Shown: piece by piece, positions 3,741 to 53,090 of the stretch
Position numbering within the stretch: position 1 is the first letter of the stretch
Layout: each line of letters starts with the position of its first letter
Source: a virus
Lineage: Duplodnaviria > Caudoviricetes
Direction: 5' to 3' (one strand)
DNA length: 55,773 bases
Virus record (IMG/VR): IMGVR_UViG_3300020152_000027
Location: 1 to 55,773 of that record
Position numbers and translations under genes: made by a program
Notes under the pieces: generated by a model
What the model was told of the DNA's origin: nothing
The model's database searches: none
The model's input: the letters and a program-made list of their open reading frames with translations, nothing else

Positions 3741-4109
3741 TTAGCTTGCAGTTTTGCCTTTTTTCGGTTTGTAGGCTTTGCGCCTCTGCATAGGCATCAT
3801 TTGCTCAGGCTCAGATGGTACTTCCCTGATATTGGTTGGTAGTGAGGCGTCCATTTGTTGAAAGTTTAATTGCCGCTCTGCCCGCGCCCGCTCTCGTTGG
3901 CGTGCCCTGTATTCAATCTCGTCAAGTTGAGCATCTTCCCAGAACACGGCATATCTATCGAGTATCTCCACAGCTACTTCTGTCCGGTTCTTTTTGTCGC
4001 CTTTAAAGCGTTCCGCAAGCCGCTCCAATCGCTCCACAAGTTCTTTGGGGGCTTGGACGTTGAATTGCAATTTTCCTTTGTTTTCGCTCACAACAATCAT
4101 AGTAACCAT
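3741..4109 (-). CDS. CI-position repressor, Arc-like ribbon-helix-helix with coiled-coil C-terminus
   Basis: KLQFNVQAPKELVERLERLAE aligns with P22 Arc PQFNLRWPREVLDLVRKVAE; divergent from PR; GGAG RBS before ATG 4109. Confidence 0.7.
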   Translation of the reverse strand: MVTMIVVSENKGKLQFNVQAPKELVERLERLAERFKGDKKNRTEVAVEILDRYAVFWEDAQLDEIEYRARQRERARAERQLNFQQMDASLPTNIREVPSEPEQMMPMQRRKAYKPKKGKTAS

Positions 4110-4138
4110 TTCTAGAAATCTCCACAACTATTTTATCC

Positions 4139-4178
4139 TTGACAGCCCCGCTAGAATCTTCTAGAATCCTCTAGACAG
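4139..4178 (+). promoter_or_regulatory. PR promoter/operator OR
   Basis: TTGACA(4139)-17-TAGAAT(4162); CTAGA at 4151, 4161, 4171; back-to-back minus-strand TAAAAT could be the PRM -10. Confidence 0.85.
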
Positions 4179-5007: not shown

Positions 5008-5229
5008 CTAGGGAATCAGTTGAACGATGAACTCGCCAAACCACACCAGCGCAATGTTCCACTCCGAAGCTTCCGCTTCTGGATCGGTAGTCGCAGGGGG
5101 CGCGGCGGGCGGCGGGTTACAGCCGTACACGGTCGTCCAGATCGTGCCGTCTTTACAAGTGGGGTTGTTGGCCTCGACCGGGAGGTATAAGGCCAGCACA
5201 AGGGCAAGGGAGACGAGTAGCTTTTTCAT
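5008..5229 (-). CDS. Secreted pro-peptide (candidate signalling peptide precursor)
   Basis: Sec signal MKKLLVSLALVLALYLPVEA; core CKDGTIWTTVYGC; Pro-rich linker; amphipathic C-terminal helix. Confidence 0.75.
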   Translation of the reverse strand: MKKLLVSLALVLALYLPVEANNPTCKDGTIWTTVYGCNPPPAAPPATTDPEAEASEWNIALVWFGEFIVQLIP

Positions 5230-5235
5230 ACACAT

Positions 5236-5264
5236 AGTTTAATGAACGAAATCAAAACAATCAA
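5236..5264 (-). promoter_or_regulatory. Leaderless-type sigma70 promoter of the pro-peptide gene
   Basis: Minus strand TTGATT-17-TAAACT, 6 nt before ATG 5229; no Shine-Dalgarno. Confidence 0.6.
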
Positions 5265-6120
5265 ACTTCAACTCGCAAGCGTGCCGTCGAATCTTCCCGC
5301 GTGGGGAGATTGGAACGAGCAGGCGAACTGGCGTTTGAGGCTTGGTGAGTTTGACGCCGCGCTTTCGATTCTACGGGTGGCACTTTCGGAGACGGAAGAT
5401 GTCAACGGGCGCGCGGCACTGACCGCAACTCTGGCGCGAACACTCTGCGTTAGCAACCGCAAATCGCTCGCCTATCAGTTGCTATCCGAGTTTGATCAAT
5501 GTGCCATCTCCGATCCCCTCATTCTCGCCAAGTTTCAGCACACGAAGGCGAACGTCTTGGACGAGTCCGGTGAATACGGGAAAGCGTTGATAGAACTTGC
5601 CGGAGCAAGTGCTTATTTCGAGGTGGCAGGGCATCCAGATCGCGCAGAGGTCGCAGCCAACACGGCGAGCGTCTACGTCAAGATAGGTAAGCCCGAAAAG
5701 GCGCACCCCGAACTCGACAAAGCAGAATCCTACTTCCGCTCCATCTCCGATCAGGTTGCACTAGCCCAAACCTTAGAGACCCGCGCACGCGCTTACCTCG
5801 CAGAGAACAGGTGCGATGAAGCGTATGCGGCGATTAAAGAATCCCGTTCATACCTGACAGACGAAGCCCCTTTAATTCTCGAATCTTTGGCGACTGAGGT
5901 TCAGATATTGGATCGGATGAAGAGTATTGCGGAGAGGGAGCGCACCAGACTTGCGCTGTTATTGAGCGCAGGGAACTACAAGGCGGCTGGCAGGTTGTTG
6001 GACATAACGGGAACAGCAGTAAAGAACAGAGTCAAAGCAGACCCGACGCTAAACGCCTTTGAGTCCGGTAGTCATACCGCCGTAGCCAGTATGGATGATG
6101 CCCTTGAGGTCAGGCCATAA
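5242..6120 (+). CDS. TPR-repeat transcriptional regulator with C-terminal Fis-type HTH (candidate peptide receptor)
   Basis: Repeated TPR helices (GEFDAALSIL, GEYGKALIEL, AEVAANTASVYVKIGKPEKA, AQTLETRARAYLAE); ERERTRLALLLSAGNYKAAGRLLDIT matches the Fis/HTH_8 pattern; start uncertain. Confidence 0.8.
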   Translation: MNEIKTIKLQLASVPSNLPAWGDWNEQANWRLRLGEFDAALSILRVALSETEDVNGRAALTATLARTLCVSNRKSLAYQLLSEFDQCAISDPLILAKFQHTKANVLDESGEYGKALIELAGASAYFEVAGHPDRAEVAANTASVYVKIGKPEKAHPELDKAESYFRSISDQVALAQTLETRARAYLAENRCDEAYAAIKESRSYLTDEAPLILESLATEVQILDRMKSIAERERTRLALLLSAGNYKAAGRLLDITGTAVKNRVKADPTLNAFESGSHTAVASMDDALEVRP

Positions 6121-6309
6121 GACACCGAAGCGAGAAACGACCCACGGGATGAGGATGCCCTTGCAATCACCACTCGTTCCGATAGTGCCGAAGAAGTCAG
6201 AGCCAGTGCCGATGATGCCGAAGAAGTTCAACCCGCAGACGATGACACCTTTGAACATCGGGATGATGACACCGAAGCAAGCAATGATGATGCCAAAAAG
6301 TTTTTTCAT
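6049..6309 (-). CDS. Repetitive multi-peptide precursor (86 aa)
   Basis: MKKLF-GIIIAC-F-GVIIPM-FK-GVIVCG-LNFF-GIIGTG-SDFF-GTIGTS-GDCK-GILIPW-VVSRF-GVLWPD-LK-GIIHTG-Y-GGMTTG-LKGV; extended -10 TGCTAGAAT 8 nt before ATG. Confidence 0.65.
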   Translation of the reverse strand: MKKLFGIIIACFGVIIPMFKGVIVCGLNFFGIIGTGSDFFGTIGTSGDCKGILIPWVVSRFGVLWPDLKGIIHTGYGGMTTGLKGV

Positions 6310-6351
6310 AGCGGGAGATTCTAGCAGAAGGGAACAAGACGGCAAATATTT

Positions 6352-6732
6352 TCACGCGTCGGGCTTCGACTCGTTTTTCAGGAGTTCATATTCAACGCTC
6401 CATCTGGCGCAAACCTTGACCAGTCCTACAAGCGAGTTCCATGTGAGGAAGACATAGACACAGATGAGCAACACATCCAGACGCGAGGCCGCACCGGCGG
6501 GCGATACCAGAAGCCAAAGGACGAATATGTTGATGCACGCCAGAAACAACTGGCCTAACACTATCGCCGTCGTCTTGCCGAATATCTGTCTGTATATGGG
6601 CTTGTACGTGATCTTGCGCGGGTCGGGATGGTCGGACTGGATAGCGTTTCTCTTAACGATGTCCGCCCAGATGGGAGTAACGGCCATCACGATCATGCCG
6701 ATTATCGCAAAAACCAACTCACGAAAAGTCAT
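6352..6732 (-). CDS. Three-TM membrane protein (moron)
   Basis: Three hydrophobic stretches; opposite strand to the early operon. Confidence 0.65.
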   Translation of the reverse strand: MTFRELVFAIIGMIVMAVTPIWADIVKRNAIQSDHPDPRKITYKPIYRQIFGKTTAIVLGQLFLACINIFVLWLLVSPAGAASRLDVLLICVYVFLTWNSLVGLVKVCARWSVEYELLKNESKPDA

Positions 6733-7301: not shown

Positions 7302-7826
7302 GTGAACTGGCGAGAATCACACCGGGCAGACAGGCGGGCTAATCGGCTTGCTAAGAGGCACTACACCTGCCAGACGCCCGCAAGCAACCAGTTCGTCAAG
7401 CCGGGGGGATGTTTAGTGCTGGTGACGAAGAACGCGGACGCTCTGTGGGTGACGAGCAGGCAGAAAGCGGAGTTCACCGATCACGCATGGGCGGGAGCAT
7501 GGGAATGCAGTTTATTCAGGAACGAGGGCAGGCTGCTTTCTTCAACTCTAATCTCAGAGGCAGTGGCAGCGACGGTCGCTTACTACGGCGCGCCTCCCCC
7601 GCTAGGCATGATCACGATGATCGATCCGCGCAAGGTAACAGGGTTTCTCAGGCGCACGGCGAAGGGCGTTGAAATGTCGTGGGGTTATTCATTCCAGCGC
7701 GCCGGGTTTGAGTTCGCGGGATGGACTAAAAGCGGGAAGTACGTCTTGCAGCTGCTACCGGAGAAGATGCCAGCAGCTTCCCCGCATGTCGTCCTTCAAG
7801 CTTCCATGTTCTCGGAGGCGGCATAA
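7302..7826 (+). CDS. GNAT/Mom-like fold phage protein (possible DNA modification)
   Basis: KRHY..QFVKPG, CSLFRNEG..SSTLISEAV, MITMIDPRKV..GYSFQRAGF resemble Mom-related motifs. Confidence 0.4.
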   Translation: MNWRESHRADRRANRLAKRHYTCQTPASNQFVKPGGCLVLVTKNADALWVTSRQKAEFTDHAWAGAWECSLFRNEGRLLSSTLISEAVAATVAYYGAPPPLGMITMIDPRKVTGFLRRTAKGVEMSWGYSFQRAGFEFAGWTKSGKYVLQLLPEKMPAASPHVVLQASMFSEAA

Positions 7827-12537: not shown

Positions 12538-13490
12538 GTGTTTAATTTGCATCGTTACTGACGGGCACGACCCCGCGCCTACGGGGAGAATAAAACTCCT
12601 GCATCAAGTGGGGGCGGACGAAGGGTTTGCCGCGATGCTTCATTCTGAGTGTATGTTCTGTGGCAAGAAGTTGGGTGACTGGAAGCCGATGGAGGAATGT
12701 CCAGAACGAAAGGAGGAACAGCATGACAGCTAAAGAATGGGGAGAATACATAGTCGGGCAATTGCACATCCCTGACCCCAAGCAGCGCGAGTGGTTGAAG
12801 CGTCAGATCGCGCAAGTTGCGGAAGATAGCTTTGAGGCATCCCGTAAAGTCGCCCATCGCTACATGGACATGTACCCGACTCCTGCGAATAAGTTTCAGG
12901 AAGGGTACAAGTTGGCAGCAACTAATATCGCCTCTGGCATCTGCCTGATAGGGGTTGAAGATGAACCGGCAAAGTAAGTTTGCGTTTGTCCTCTTTTTGT
13001 TGGCCTGCGCGTACTGGGTTTACTTCGTGCTAACGAATTTTTAGAGACGTAGAAAGGAAAACTATGCAAATTGATTTCACGCCTGACGGACGGATTAAAG
13101 CGGACATGACGCCCGATGAACTAACAATGCTGATGATCATGGTAACGAATAACATCTCGCCTTCAAGCATTCTTGAGAAGTCGGATGATCTTGCGAACGA
13201 TGGCACGACCAAATCGGATGCGGGAAGCGGAGATTCGATAGGTCAAGCGGCGGGCATCGTGGCCTGAATAGTTTTCAGAGATGGGAAACGGATATTGAGA
13301 GGGGGAGAGAAATGGTCAATATCATGGAAGCAAACGGCCAGTTGTTTGAAGGTAAAACCGTGATCTGTTCCGGGTGCGGCCAAGAGCATGAATCTTACGA
13401 CCCACATACGCCCGAAGGTGGCTATGAATACTGTGACGATTGCGTTGAAAGTGATCGTGAAGATGAAGCGCGGGAAAGGGCTGATCGCTG

Positions 13491-13925
13491 ATGGGATTGC
13501 AGATGACACCGCAGGAAGTCGAAGCGCACAACGCCAGAGTCATAGCAGGGCGGAGAGGCGTGTCTCAGGTCAATTCTGCGCAAGTACGGCCTAAGCGAGA
13601 GGGGCGCGTCAAAGGTGCGAAGCAGACGGAAGTGGACGGCATCAAGTTCCCGTCGAAGAAAGAGGCGCGCAGGTATCAGGAATTAAAGATCATTCAACGC
13701 GCCGAAGGTATCCGGCGACTGAGGCGGCAGATCACCTTTCCTTTGGTTGTGAAAGGCTGGCCTGTTTATGAAGAGGGCTATCGCGCTGATTTTACTTACT
13801 ACGAACTTGAGCGCGGTGAATGGTTTTATGTTGTCGAAGATACCAAAGGCCACAAGACGGAAACCTACTTAAACAAGAAACGGTTGATGAAGGCTATCTA
13901 CGGCATTGAAATCCGCGAATCGTGA
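13491..13925 (+). CDS. DUF1064-family PD-(D/E)xK endonuclease
   Basis: VDGIKFPSKKEARRYQEL..YRADFTY..VVEDTKG. Confidence 0.85.
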   Translation: MGLQMTPQEVEAHNARVIAGRRGVSQVNSAQVRPKREGRVKGAKQTEVDGIKFPSKKEARRYQELKIIQRAEGIRRLRRQITFPLVVKGWPVYEEGYRADFTYYELERGEWFYVVEDTKGHKTETYLNKKRLMKAIYGIEIRES

Positions 13926-47639: not shown

Positions 47640-48440
47640 ATGAAGACTATCGCCATCGCAAATCAGAAGGGCGGCGTAGGTAAAACGACTACCGCTGTTA
47701 ATCTTGCCGCTGCCCTACAGTCGCAAGGCCGGAGGGTGCTGGTGCTCGACCTAGACCCGCAGGCAACCGCCACCCGCTTCCTGCTCGACCGCTACGGGGC
47801 TGACGGGGAGACGATGTATGAAGTCCTCTTGAACAGTAAACCTCTCTCCGAAGTCATCCAGAAATCCCCCGCCGGTATCCCCATCGCGCCCAGCAACTTC
47901 AATCTGGCGTCGCTCGACCTCGACCTGAACAACGCCCTGAACCGCGAGCACCGCCTGACCGCCGCGCTGGAAGAGATTCCCGGCTACGACTACACGCTGA
48001 TTGACTGCCCGACGTTCTTAGGCTTCGCCAACATCAACGCCTTTGCCGCATCCCAAAGCGTGCTGATACCGATTGAATGCGCGCCGGAATCATGGGAAGC
48101 AGTTCCCTACTTGATGCAGACCTTACGCAAGATCATCACGCAGCTTAAACACCCGTTGAAGGTGTTCGCGCTGCCGACGTTCTTAGAGCGCACTAACATC
48201 GCCAGAGACATCCACGAAGAAATCAAAGAGCATTTTGAGGCGTACACCCTCAGTCCGATCAACAAGAACGTGAAACTGAAAGAGGCTTTCAACGCGAGAA
48301 AGCCGATCACTCAATACGACCCGGCGGCGTCGGGTGCTATGGACTACCTGAGAGCGGCTAAGGAGATCATTAGTGAACACGAAACCGAAAAGGAAATACG
48401 GCGAAGTAAAGAAGGGCGCGGAAACGACGCTCGGAACTAA
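47640..48440 (+). CDS. parA: ParA/Soj partition ATPase
   Basis: NQKGGVGKTT, DLDPQ, IDCP. Confidence 0.95.
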   Translation: MKTIAIANQKGGVGKTTTAVNLAAALQSQGRRVLVLDLDPQATATRFLLDRYGADGETMYEVLLNSKPLSEVIQKSPAGIPIAPSNFNLASLDLDLNNALNREHRLTAALEEIPGYDYTLIDCPTFLGFANINAFAASQSVLIPIECAPESWEAVPYLMQTLRKIITQLKHPLKVFALPTFLERTNIARDIHEEIKEHFEAYTLSPINKNVKLKEAFNARKPITQYDPAASGAMDYLRAAKEIISEHETEKEIRRSKEGRGNDARN

Positions 48441-52160: not shown

Positions 52161-53021
52161 CTAACTGGAAGGGAACTCGTCCCATGTGCGACCCGAGCCT
52201 TTTACCTGTCGGCGGTATTTGACGTTGACATAATCTGTGGGTAGGTATTGCTGCAAATCTTCCTTGATGTAGTGATCGTTTCCGGTCTCTGCGAGCAGTT
52301 CGATAACCTGCTTGGTGAACGCCTTCCAGTCCGTGCGCTTCGTCAGCGTCGAGTAGTTGATACGCCCGATCTTGTACAGGTCAACGAAGGTGTGAGTCTG
52401 GCGGATGATTTCGAGCGTCACGTCAGGGTCAATCACAGGTTCAAGGCTGACCCATGTATACAGCCCGGCTTCGTGGAAACGTTTCAACGTCTCAATGCGG
52501 TCTGCCGGGGAAGCCGCGCCCGCCTCCATCCTCATTGATGTCGCTTCATCCAAGAGCGTCAGGCTTGAGGCGAAAGCATCGCGGTCAGGGCGAAACAGAT
52601 CGAGGTCGCGAAGCGCGCGGCTCCCGCCTTTGGTGAGCGTGCAGAAGGCCATCCCGTGCTGGATGAGTGTTTGAATCGTCTCGCGCGTCAAGGACGTGTC
52701 GAACGGGTGATACGGATCGGTGGTGAAACAGAGCAAGACCTGTTCGGTAATGCCGAGTGATTGGTATTTGCGTGCATCTTTTGGAAGTTGTTCGCGGTAG
52801 ATCGCCCGATCTTTCGCGCCTGCGTCGAACTCTGCGCGGCTCATCTTCAAGACGCTCGGAACATAGCAGTAAAAACACTTATGGCCGCACCCTCGGTACA
52901 TGTTGGTCGCAAGTCGCGCATACTCTCCGGCCTGACCAGCGGGCGCGTAGATAATCGAACAGTTTTTGACGGAGTACCCGTCAGCGTTGAGCGTTGGTTT
53001 CATTGCAATTTTATTTGGCAT
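52161..53021 (-). CDS. Radical SAM protein (spore photoproduct lyase-like)
   Basis: YRGCGHKCFYCY CxxxCxxC; TTDPY; LTK; WVSLEPVI. Confidence 0.85.
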   Translation of the reverse strand: MPNKIAMKPTLNADGYSVKNCSIIYAPAGQAGEYARLATNMYRGCGHKCFYCYVPSVLKMSRAEFDAGAKDRAIYREQLPKDARKYQSLGITEQVLLCFTTDPYHPFDTSLTRETIQTLIQHGMAFCTLTKGGSRALRDLDLFRPDRDAFASSLTLLDEATSMRMEAGAASPADRIETLKRFHEAGLYTWVSLEPVIDPDVTLEIIRQTHTFVDLYKIGRINYSTLTKRTDWKAFTKQVIELLAETGNDHYIKEDLQQYLPTDYVNVKYRRQVKGSGRTWDEFPSS

Positions 53022-53090
53022 GTGCGTTTTCCTTAAATTACTTTCCTCTGTCATAGGGAATTTAGGTTGATGAAATTGCACCCTCTTGAG

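Follow-up and report, generated by a model that had tools for sequence, protein, structure and literature searches.

The stretch of DNA analysed here (the window) is an entire IMG/VR virus record of 55,773 bp, linear and with an estimated completeness of 54%. It encodes a replication O-like protein, a DnaC-like loader, a DNA methyltransferase, a large terminase and a portal as well as a major head protein, a tape measure and tail proteins; from this set of replication, terminase, portal, head and tail genes, we therefore conclude that it belongs to a tailed phage. In its early region, two genes diverge from start codons that lie 12 nt apart, one for a 292-amino-acid (aa) protein with TPR repeats and a predicted C-terminal helix-turn-helix (HTH), and one for a 73-aa protein with a Sec-signal-like N terminus. 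A prediction made earlier from the letters of the sequence (the original prediction) had taken this pair for a candidate arbitrium-like peptide communication locus; the 73-aa open reading frame (ORF) and its head-to-head arrangement with the TPR gene were borne out by the ORF coordinates and by our signal-peptide heuristic. The features of the locus and of its surroundings are listed in Table 1.

Table 1. Position, strand and basis of the features discussed in the window
Feature	Position	Strand	Basis or remark
Candidate pro-peptide gene 1, 73 aa starting MKK	5008..5229	-	ORF list, codon score, family alignment
Motif GTIWTT, proposed signal-bearing core of peptide 1	5131..5148	-	Translation
12-nt spacer between divergent start codons	5230..5241	.	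ORF coordinates
Soluble TPR sensor and predicted C-terminal Fis-type HTH regulator, 292 aa	5242..6120	+	Pfam, relatives, AF2 (AlphaFold2) model
Predicted C-terminal HTH region, residues 232-273	5935..6060	+	Alignment, PDB profile, AF2 model
Candidate multi-copy pro-peptide 2, 86 aa	6049..6309	-	ORF list, codon score, motif count
Sigma-70-like promoter TTGCCG-16-TAGAAT with TG	6318..6345	-	Before ORF 6049-6309; consensus match only
126-aa ORF with several hydrophobic segments	6352-6732	-	Directly upstream of ORF 6049-6309, same strand
Divergent promoter/operator-like region	4096..4174	.	Between 128-aa (-) and 59-aa (+) genes
Early gene upstream of the pair, 173 aa	4471..4992	+	Family unassigned, HTH-like lead
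Early-region protein	7302-7826	+	phrog_24928 (unknown function), E 1e-48
ParA-type ATPase	47640-48440	+	Pfam scan of window ORFs
Radical SAM protein	52161-53081	-	Pfam scan of window ORFs

The 292-aa protein matches TPR_12 and TPR_19 above the Pfam cut-off, with repeats that begin near residue 20, and Pfam found neither an AAA+ nor a receiver domain in it. It has no membrane segment, the maximum hydropathy over 19 residues being 0.85. An AF2 model based on a 10-row alignment (pLDDT 88.3) predicts an all-helical superhelix, a long helix at residues 209-241 and three short C-terminal helices, which were modelled in the HTH region at 246-253, 257-266 and 268-273. The C-terminal Fis-type HTH of the original prediction stood by way of relatives and of a PDB profile, but not by a direct match, as Pfam HTH_8 had none to the window protein at E<=1. 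Among ten scanned relatives of 270-300 aa, which align end to end with the window protein, seven carry HTH_8 (it was not found by Pfam in P0002, P0088 and P0136), and the alignment profile matched the HTH_8 peptide 7zbs_X in the PDB at positions 232-254 with an E-value of 0.0036. Because full-length relatives carry HTH_8 in the aligned region, we accept the protein as a probable TPR regulator with a C-terminal Fis-type HTH.

A word-indexed search returned P0002 only (274 aa, 63% identity) as closest relative, and an exhaustive profile search returned 589 proteins at E<=0.001, 126 of them at E<=1e-10. In the next relatives (E 1e-41 to 1e-36; P0003, P0004 and P0005, and also P0010), the TPR part is fused to a C-terminal Peptidase_S24. 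These are metagenome proteins of 420-460 aa with a LexA/CI-type self-cleaving domain and no recognised HTH, and TPR plus Peptidase_S24 is an unusual sensor-plus-autoprotease architecture. P0103 and the TPR-S24 motif had no match in viral contigs, INPHARED phages gave no tblastn match, and a portal-related contig (L002) does not contain the early region. No close homologue (E<1e-30) of the phage protein was found in 401 genomes of the class, in each of which six candidates were scored. Finally, the protein has no match to RRNPP-type families of Pfam or NCBIfam. The top Foldseek matches of the TPR model are LGN/Pins and kinesin light chain TPRs, the top 50 BFVD matches are generic TPR proteins, and the best 60 of 148 PDB profile matches are to PPR, kinesin light chain and SRP72, with no RRNPP chain among them or among the Foldseek ranks listed. 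These fold and profile searches agree with the original prediction in setting the system apart from RRNPP, and we conclude from sequence and model that it is not homologous to RRNPP or AimR.

The divergent 73-aa ORF (75 aa if translation starts at an alternative ATG at 5235) encodes signal-like residues 1-20 followed by NNPTCKDGTIWTTVYGC, PPP and a hydrophobic tail; here and below, signal peptides were called by a hydrophobicity/charge heuristic together with A-x-A sites. Its codon usage is like that of the phage's long genes, the score per codon being 0.184 compared with 0.181 for the TPR gene and 0.018 for ORF 5027-5242, which overlaps it on the + strand. Twelve small ORFs in the six frames of the window are signal-peptide-like, and only this one adds PPP and a hydrophobic tail, a combination with 0 occurrences in 10 shuffles. 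The spacer between the two genes is too short for promoters, and therefore their promoters must overlap coding sequence.

A degenerate DNA pattern for the conserved ETRARA[YF]LA[EQ] was run on species-representative genomes. Of its 27 matches, 18 encode family members (Pyrinomonadaceae, 14; Pyrinomonadales, one; Blastocatellia, one; Acidobacteriota/Acidobacteria, two), with family hidden Markov model (HMM) E-values of 1e-46 to 1e-67 at the bacterial loci. The genome scan thereby confirmed the statement in the original prediction that similar TPR-Fis/short-peptide pairs occur in Blastocatellia. In bacteria, the TPR module is the sensor part of proteins of 500-780 aa and is joined to HTH_8 alone, to HTH_8 and a receiver, or to a sigma-54 AAA+ domain and HTH_8; the relatives of 750-780 aa (L009- and L015-type) are full sigma-54 activators with a TPR sensor. 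Five genomes contain 12, 10, 6, 5 and 6 TPR matches, and 47 of 48 family receptors have no 19-residue stretch above a hydropathy of 1.6.

A divergent gene for a small, putatively exported protein lies directly upstream in 35 of 43 unique TPR loci, as found by a heuristic scan and then by an HMM of 13 precursors. Three of the eight loci without the small gene have less than 300 bp of upstream DNA, which leaves 35 of 40 where the upstream DNA is usable. In the five genomes, for which the lists of TPR and small-family matches were compared by eye, the small gene stands beside 35 of 39 TPR matches; moreover, the small-protein profile has 39 matches in these genomes, and all 35 at E<=7e-11 adjoin a TPR match on the opposite strand. 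The small gene accompanies TPR-HTH_8, TPR-HTH_8-receiver and TPR-sigma54 AAA-HTH_8 proteins as well as the HTH-less TPR protein of a related phage contig (L068, see below). In total, we conclude that the small gene tracks the TPR sensor and not the output domain across four architectures.

The intergenic gaps of the bacterial loci are mostly 50-200 bp. AGGAGAA precedes the small gene in 18 of 29 intergenic regions, a 12-13-nt inverted repeat GGCGCATCTTAAC..GTTAAGATGCGCC lies between the divergent genes, a CTTGCAAG..TTGCAA element lies ~15 nt before a TAGAAAGG box at the TPR gene, and some loci have a GC-rich hairpin with a T-run; such elements are seen, for example, in L006, L016, L039; L050, L055, L047 and L057. 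We consider them candidate operators, promoters and insulating terminators. A strict search for sigma-54 -24/-12 promoters found none in 35 intergenic regions, and a loose search gave one match per direction. Host-type genomes encode 3-4 OppA-type binding proteins each, which for re-import of a peptide is permissive only. In five loci of one orthologous type (L003, L015, L017, L022 and L029), the TPR gene is followed by a gene for a 480-550-aa protein of SurA-like, peptidyl-prolyl isomerase and DsbA-like thioredoxin domains, and a gene for an ATP-dependent DNA ligase precedes the small gene; the neighbours differ among the other paralogous loci.

The precursors share one order of parts: a conserved signal peptide with an A-x-A-type site, a short motif, usually a proline run, a variable stretch rich in Thr, Ser and Gly, and a conserved amphipathic/hydrophobic C-terminal tail of the ..TEIALNLLQSVLSLF type. 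An invariant Gly opens the motif, G-[EDQN..]-[IM]-x-[TN]-x, at the mature N terminus. In 13 of 37 precursors, all within the 34 bacterial ones, a 5-mer is repeated (at least two copies with at least 4/5 residues identical), and the copies reproduce the motif that follows the signal sequence; in some precursors, an array of 8-residue units makes up essentially the whole protein. Between close receptor pairs (TPR p-distance <0.35, 21 comparisons), identity is 0.70 in the six motif residues, 0.56 in the signal peptide, 0.49 in the tail and 0.35 in the middle, and motif identity falls to 0.34-0.37 among distant paralogs, making the motif paralog-specific. By analogy, an export signal with a short, repeated, paralog-specific core has the look of a pheromone precursor; pheromones in tandem copies are on record for the Rap-Phr pro-peptides of phages (PMC11343458; PMC9765709).

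Neither Pfam nor NCBIfam contains a model of the small family, and a scan of 14 members against NCBIfam at E<=1 gave only four unrelated single matches. Its profile retrieved 178 members at E<=0.001 from a collection of 5.8 billion proteins; nearly all are hypothetical, one bears an unrelated JGI name, and the stated organisms are Acidobacteria or Blastocatellia. Other readings of the small proteins were rejected: the tails end in a ..LLQSVLSLF-type sequence with no Pro-Glu-Pro or Arg cluster, unlike PEP-CTERM proteins, and lipoproteins and double-glycine leaders were ruled out from the sequences.

The 73-aa protein of the window aligns with this family and shares the invariant Gly, with GTIWTT opposite GDIQTT of phage contig L069. 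GTIWTT, which the original prediction had proposed as the core, thus agrees with the family motif. A 7-aa insert with a Cys separates the signal-like part from the motif, and the Cys-Cys pair is particular to this peptide, since none of the 36 other precursors in the alignment has it. The pattern G-x-[IM]-x-[TN]-[PGTS], which was written from the bacterial precursors and hence after the family had been seen, has six matches in 3 of 763 window ORFs: GTIWTT once in the 73-aa protein, four in ORF 6049-6309 and the rest in ORF 13325-13564. The last of these, on the - strand, is also the best window match of the small-family HMM, and it was rejected as an unconvincing shadow ORF over + strand genes. 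Composition-preserving shuffles of the 73-aa protein contained a motif match in 1.3% of trials. A prediction of the complex between the TPR protein and the mature peptide, run without controls, gave a score of 0.02 and a mark of 0.32, values that speak neither for nor against binding.

A narrower alignment of short TPR-HTH_8 proteins identified two related viral contigs, L068 and L069. L069 encodes a 324-aa TPR-HTH_8 protein (HTH_8 E 3e-10) and, 50 bp away and divergent, a 57-aa precursor with a signal peptide, GDIQTT, PPPPP and a hydrophobic tail. In L068, the TPR protein has 205 aa and no HTH, and the divergent gene encodes a precursor of 46 aa. Good ribosome-binding sites precede the small genes of both contigs. 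Moreover, both pairs lie near repressor genes: the L068 pair is ~1.5 kb to the right of an S24 (LexA/CI-type) repressor, and the L069 pair is to the right of an XRE repressor and an M78 (ImmA/IrrE-type) peptidase. In all three phages, a + strand gene for a protein of 158-173 aa and unassigned family precedes the pair; similarity among the three proteins is marginal at best (E 0.006, window versus L069, local). Each of L068 (2327-2737, - strand; E 8e-10) and L069 (826-1263, - strand; E 3e-11) also has, adjoining the lysogeny repressor genes, a gene for a small PAS-domain protein with a Cys-rich N terminus. By eye, we take these domains to be like those of photoactive yellow protein, and they could feed another sensory signal into the switch.

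A second, putatively exported ORF (6049-6309) lies at the 3' end of the TPR gene; the coordinates of the original prediction span it, but it went unmentioned there. It has a signal-like N terminus, a codon score of 0.257 and a promoter-like site of its own, and it is called as a protein elsewhere (ESM Atlas), with no family. It contains four motifs (GIIGTG, GTIGTS, GIIHTG and GGMTTG), two of them within a tandem 10-aa repeat that corresponds to a 30-nt tandem repeat at 6176-6235, and none of 20,000 composition-preserving shuffles reached three motif matches. Both small ORFs that flank the TPR gene thus carry the family motif. Because the ORF overlaps the last 72 nt of the TPR gene, which are its disordered final 24 codons, and lacks the proline run and the family tail, we grade it as a candidate second precursor only. 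A possible alternative reading joins it to the 126-aa ORF upstream of it, the two forming a bacteriocin-like peptide and its immunity or membrane protein, or else a moron.

Fragments of the locus identical to the window occur in contigs of four further soil metagenome runs; these fragments are short, and the four runs provided no variants for a selection test. No RNA data set was listed as containing the locus. One soil contig (run X2) is identical to the window at 6095-6229 and unlike it to the left of 6095, and may be a variant or recombinant that departs from the window near the 3' end of the TPR gene.

The only signs of a lysogeny region that the window shows are a stretch with a promoter-like site and palindromes, and small genes of no assigned class. 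The divergent region at 4096..4174 contains a sigma-70-like TTGACA-17-TAGAAT with an 11/12 match, by consensus comparison only, and palindromes of the TTCTAGAA type at 4110-4174 overlap this near-consensus promoter. The arrangement fits a putative switch region, without a family match of the neighbouring genes. The labels cro and cII, which the original prediction had given to genes here, found no support: no family matched, and the sole lead is for the 173-aa protein, which has no Pfam, PHROGs or NCBIfam family and sub-threshold, HTH-like leads in the ESM Atlas. Among ten early-region proteins, PHROGs matched only that at 7302-7826. An inverted repeat pair (4157-4168 and 6317-6328) places a TTCTAGAATC-like sequence both in the switch region and at the promoter-like site of ORF 6049-6309. 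Because the TTCTAGAATC sequence in the -10 region of this site resembles the TTCTAGAA-type palindromes, the pair suggests that a single repressor may act on both.

Altogether, the genes, their pairing, their layout and their position were observed, and the locus appears to be a two-gene module characteristic of Pyrinomonadaceae (Acidobacteriota), in a copy carried by a phage. The most economical reading of this module is a signal and its receptor, because the small gene tracks the sensor and was found nowhere else in the five genomes, because its product looks exported and the sensor cytoplasmic, and because a short, repeated motif is the best-conserved part of the small proteins. We infer along the following lines how the peptide would be exported, processed, taken up and bound, and in which direction and on what target regulation would act. 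The precursor would be exported by Sec and cut by signal peptidase, releasing a short peptide that bears the G-x-I-x-T motif, GTIWTT in the window; further copies of the signal could come from the four-motif ORF 6049-6309. The peptide would build up outside the cell and return through an oligopeptide permease. The TPR protein would be a cytoplasmic one-component regulator with the TPR superhelix as sensor and the C-terminal Fis-type HTH as output, and binding of the returned peptide in the TPR groove would alter DNA binding by the HTH. Because the module lies in the early operon beside the immunity region, the decision regulated in the phage is most likely that between lysis and lysogeny.

We give even chances to this reading, in which the locus would be a non-homologous analogue of RRNPP and arbitrium signalling. 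While the observation behind the original prediction was confirmed, its interpretation is partly supported; we retain its main inference because pro-peptide genes do neighbour the TPR homologs, in 35 of 43 loci and in both related phage contigs, and this was the one computational comparison that could have overturned it. A broader picture, which we offer tentatively and hold to be clearly less probable, is that Pyrinomonadaceae possess a pheromone-receptor family, so far undescribed, with 5-12 orthogonal channels per genome and precursors that release peptides of the G-x-I-x-T type, and that temperate phages have taken up the module as an arbitrium-like counter for lysis or lysogeny, the window phage having one receptor with a one-copy and a four-copy precursor.

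Several observations weigh against signalling by the window pair. The family HMM, built from 13 bacterial precursors, does not list the 73-aa ORF among the 763 window ORFs at E<=100, and membership of this ORF therein follows from position, layout and a six-residue motif defined post hoc. No Shine-Dalgarno sequence precedes either gene of the pair, no sigma-70-like site was predicted near the spacer, which has no room for a promoter, and the stop of the + strand ORF 5027-5242 overlaps the TPR start as TAATG, a layout well suited to translational coupling. In a tree (FastTree, midpoint-rooted, support values not read), the window TPR protein and P0002 share a deep branch that is separate from the chromosomal paralogs, and the P0002 locus was not found in scans of metagenomes, viral contigs and genome contigs. 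The predicted TPR fold is generic and not specifically like that of peptide-pheromone receptors. In a diderm host, the outer membrane would require two crossings by the peptide, and the neighbouring genes of the bacterial loci include no protease or transporter dedicated to the module. All members of the family are known from sequence alone. Finally, no integrase or classified repressor was found among 20 window ORFs scanned against Pfam; because a ParA-type ATPase is present and an integrase was not found among these ORFs, the phage may persist as a plasmid prophage.

The main rival to signalling is a regulator with its target, in which the small exported protein would itself act as an effector, for example as a bacteriocin-like peptide, a superinfection-exclusion factor or a factor of the envelope or periplasm, and the TPR protein would control its expression while sensing something else. 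Divergent regulator-target pairs are common, and the CTTGCAAG..TTGCAA and GGCGCATCTTAAC..GTTAAGATGCGCC palindromes could serve as operators for autoregulation; however, the small gene is present whatever the output of the TPR protein, even where, as in L068, it has no HTH, and sigma-54 activators are not obvious drivers of a gene when the 35 intergenic regions contain no strict sigma-54 promoter. Similarly, the amphipathic tail and the proline run suggest a structural role beyond that of a short signal, and the very hydrophobic ORF 6049-6309 beside a multi-pass membrane ORF is bacteriocin/immunity-like, but it would be odd if 5-12 regulators per genome had, as their sole conserved neighbour, a ~50-aa protein in which a paralog-specific, often repeated six-residue motif is the most conserved part. 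We regard this explanation as a serious one with a minority share of the probability.

It is unlikely, though still worth weighing, that the phage listens to or jams the peptide modules of its host instead of counting sister phages. That each of the three phages encodes its own precursor beside the receptor favours self-signalling over such eavesdropping or mimicry. Host-type genomes do have 5-12 such modules, the L069 TPR protein is sister to chromosomal paralogs in the tree, and phage motifs resemble those of hosts (GDIQTT of L069 versus GEIQTT/GEIQTP, GIIEQP of L068 versus GIIESP, and GTIWTT of the window versus GIITTW), but these likenesses are short and were chosen by eye. There is a precedent in Vibrio phages, which have receptors for host autoinducers (PMC13389391).

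Less probable again is a partner switch coupled to secretion, in which the TPR protein would bind the unexported precursor, for example by its tail, in the cytoplasm, and its activity would report the rate of export. Class II type III secretion chaperones free an activator in this way once their cargo has left (IpgC-MxiE, SicA-InvF), and the TPR region has weak NCBIfam similarity to the chaperone model SctY (E 3e-4 to 2e-5); such chaperone similarities are, however, far under the curated cut-offs. With a cytoplasmic receptor and a partner made in the same compartment, neither re-import nor crossing of the outer membrane would be needed, yet Sec substrates normally leave quickly. Conservation of the tail across paralogs fits a binding site of this kind but leaves the paralog-specific repeated motif unexplained.

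Finally, it is highly improbable that the 73-aa ORF is spurious and that the real feature is a TPR-HTH factor, perhaps coupled to ORF 5027-5242 through the TAATG overlap: gene callers skipped the ORF, which is absent from the 5.8-billion-protein collection, and it lacks a Shine-Dalgarno sequence and a family HMM match, but its codon score is 0.184 and that of the + strand ORF 0.018, its layout of signal, PPP and tail is unique in the window and did not arise in the shuffles, and a divergent gene of this kind recurs at 35 of 43 bacterial loci as well as in both L068 and L069, where good ribosome-binding sites precede it.

If signalling by this module is true, peptide quorum sensing of RRNPP logic arose independently in a diderm soil phylum; the Acidobacteriota, abundant yet poorly understood, would hold a large and diversified set of signalling channels, and temperate soil phages beyond those of Gram-positives may count each other, or their hosts, by peptides. 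The sources consulted describe genetically encoded, TPR-read peptide signals and phage-phage communication by peptides from Bacillota and their phages only (PMC10075063; PMC11343458; PMC13389391), and the text of a 2026 review of phage communication has zero occurrences of 'Gram-negative' or 'Acidobacteri' (PMC13389391). A full-text literature search, which covered articles and not supplements such as the candidate lists of RRNPP_Detector, returned no description of the module and no paper that joins RRNPP with Acidobacteria. The locus opens onto a large uncharacterised family, and the repeated paralog-specific motifs tell which synthetic peptides to make.

The system resembles arbitrium in that it is encoded by a phage, pairs a cytoplasmic TPR receptor that is also predicted to bind DNA with an adjacent gene for a putative Sec-exported precursor and, in L068 and L069, lies near a lysogeny control region. 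It differs in that its TPR protein has no sequence or specific fold similarity to AimR and its predicted HTH is C-terminal and Fis-type, whereas that of AimR is N-terminal. The aimP gene lies directly downstream of aimR on the same strand, and the mature hexapeptide is at the C terminus of the AimP pro-peptide; by contrast, the peptide gene of the window is divergent and upstream, and its candidate signal is at the mature N terminus of a precursor with a conserved hydrophobic tail. Moreover, the host of the window phage is probably a diderm acidobacterium, and no aimX-like output was identified at the locus.

With the RRNPP(A) systems (Rap/Phr, NprR, PlcR/PapR, PrgX and Rgg/SHP), the module shares a two-gene design of a cytoplasmic TPR receptor and a putative exported pro-peptide, many paralogous copies per genome, members with and without a DNA-binding domain, the L068 protein being one without, and tandem copies of the candidate signal in some precursors, as PMC11343458 and PMC9765709 describe for pro-peptides of that group. 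It differs from them in having neither an N-terminal XRE-type HTH nor a Rap 3-helix bundle before the window TPR, in its predicted outputs (Fis HTH_8, sigma-54 AAA+ and receiver) and in its phylum, Acidobacteriota and not Bacillota.

The predicted C-terminal HTH_8 is a likeness to the NtrC/Fis family, and the bacterial relatives of 750-780 aa are of the sigma-54 enhancer-binding type; NCBIfam similarities to PrdR, AtoC and NifA were all below cut-off. The window protein differs from that family in being a sensor and an HTH only, with no AAA+ and no receiver domain, and the literature searched describes no TPR sensor paired with an exported small gene for the family. Lastly, phages of the Vibrio type with receptors for host quorum signals (PMC13389391) offer a parallel, in that a temperate phage times its life-cycle decision through its own homologue of a receptor of host type; those receptors sense small molecules made by host enzymes, whereas the window phage encodes the candidate peptide itself.

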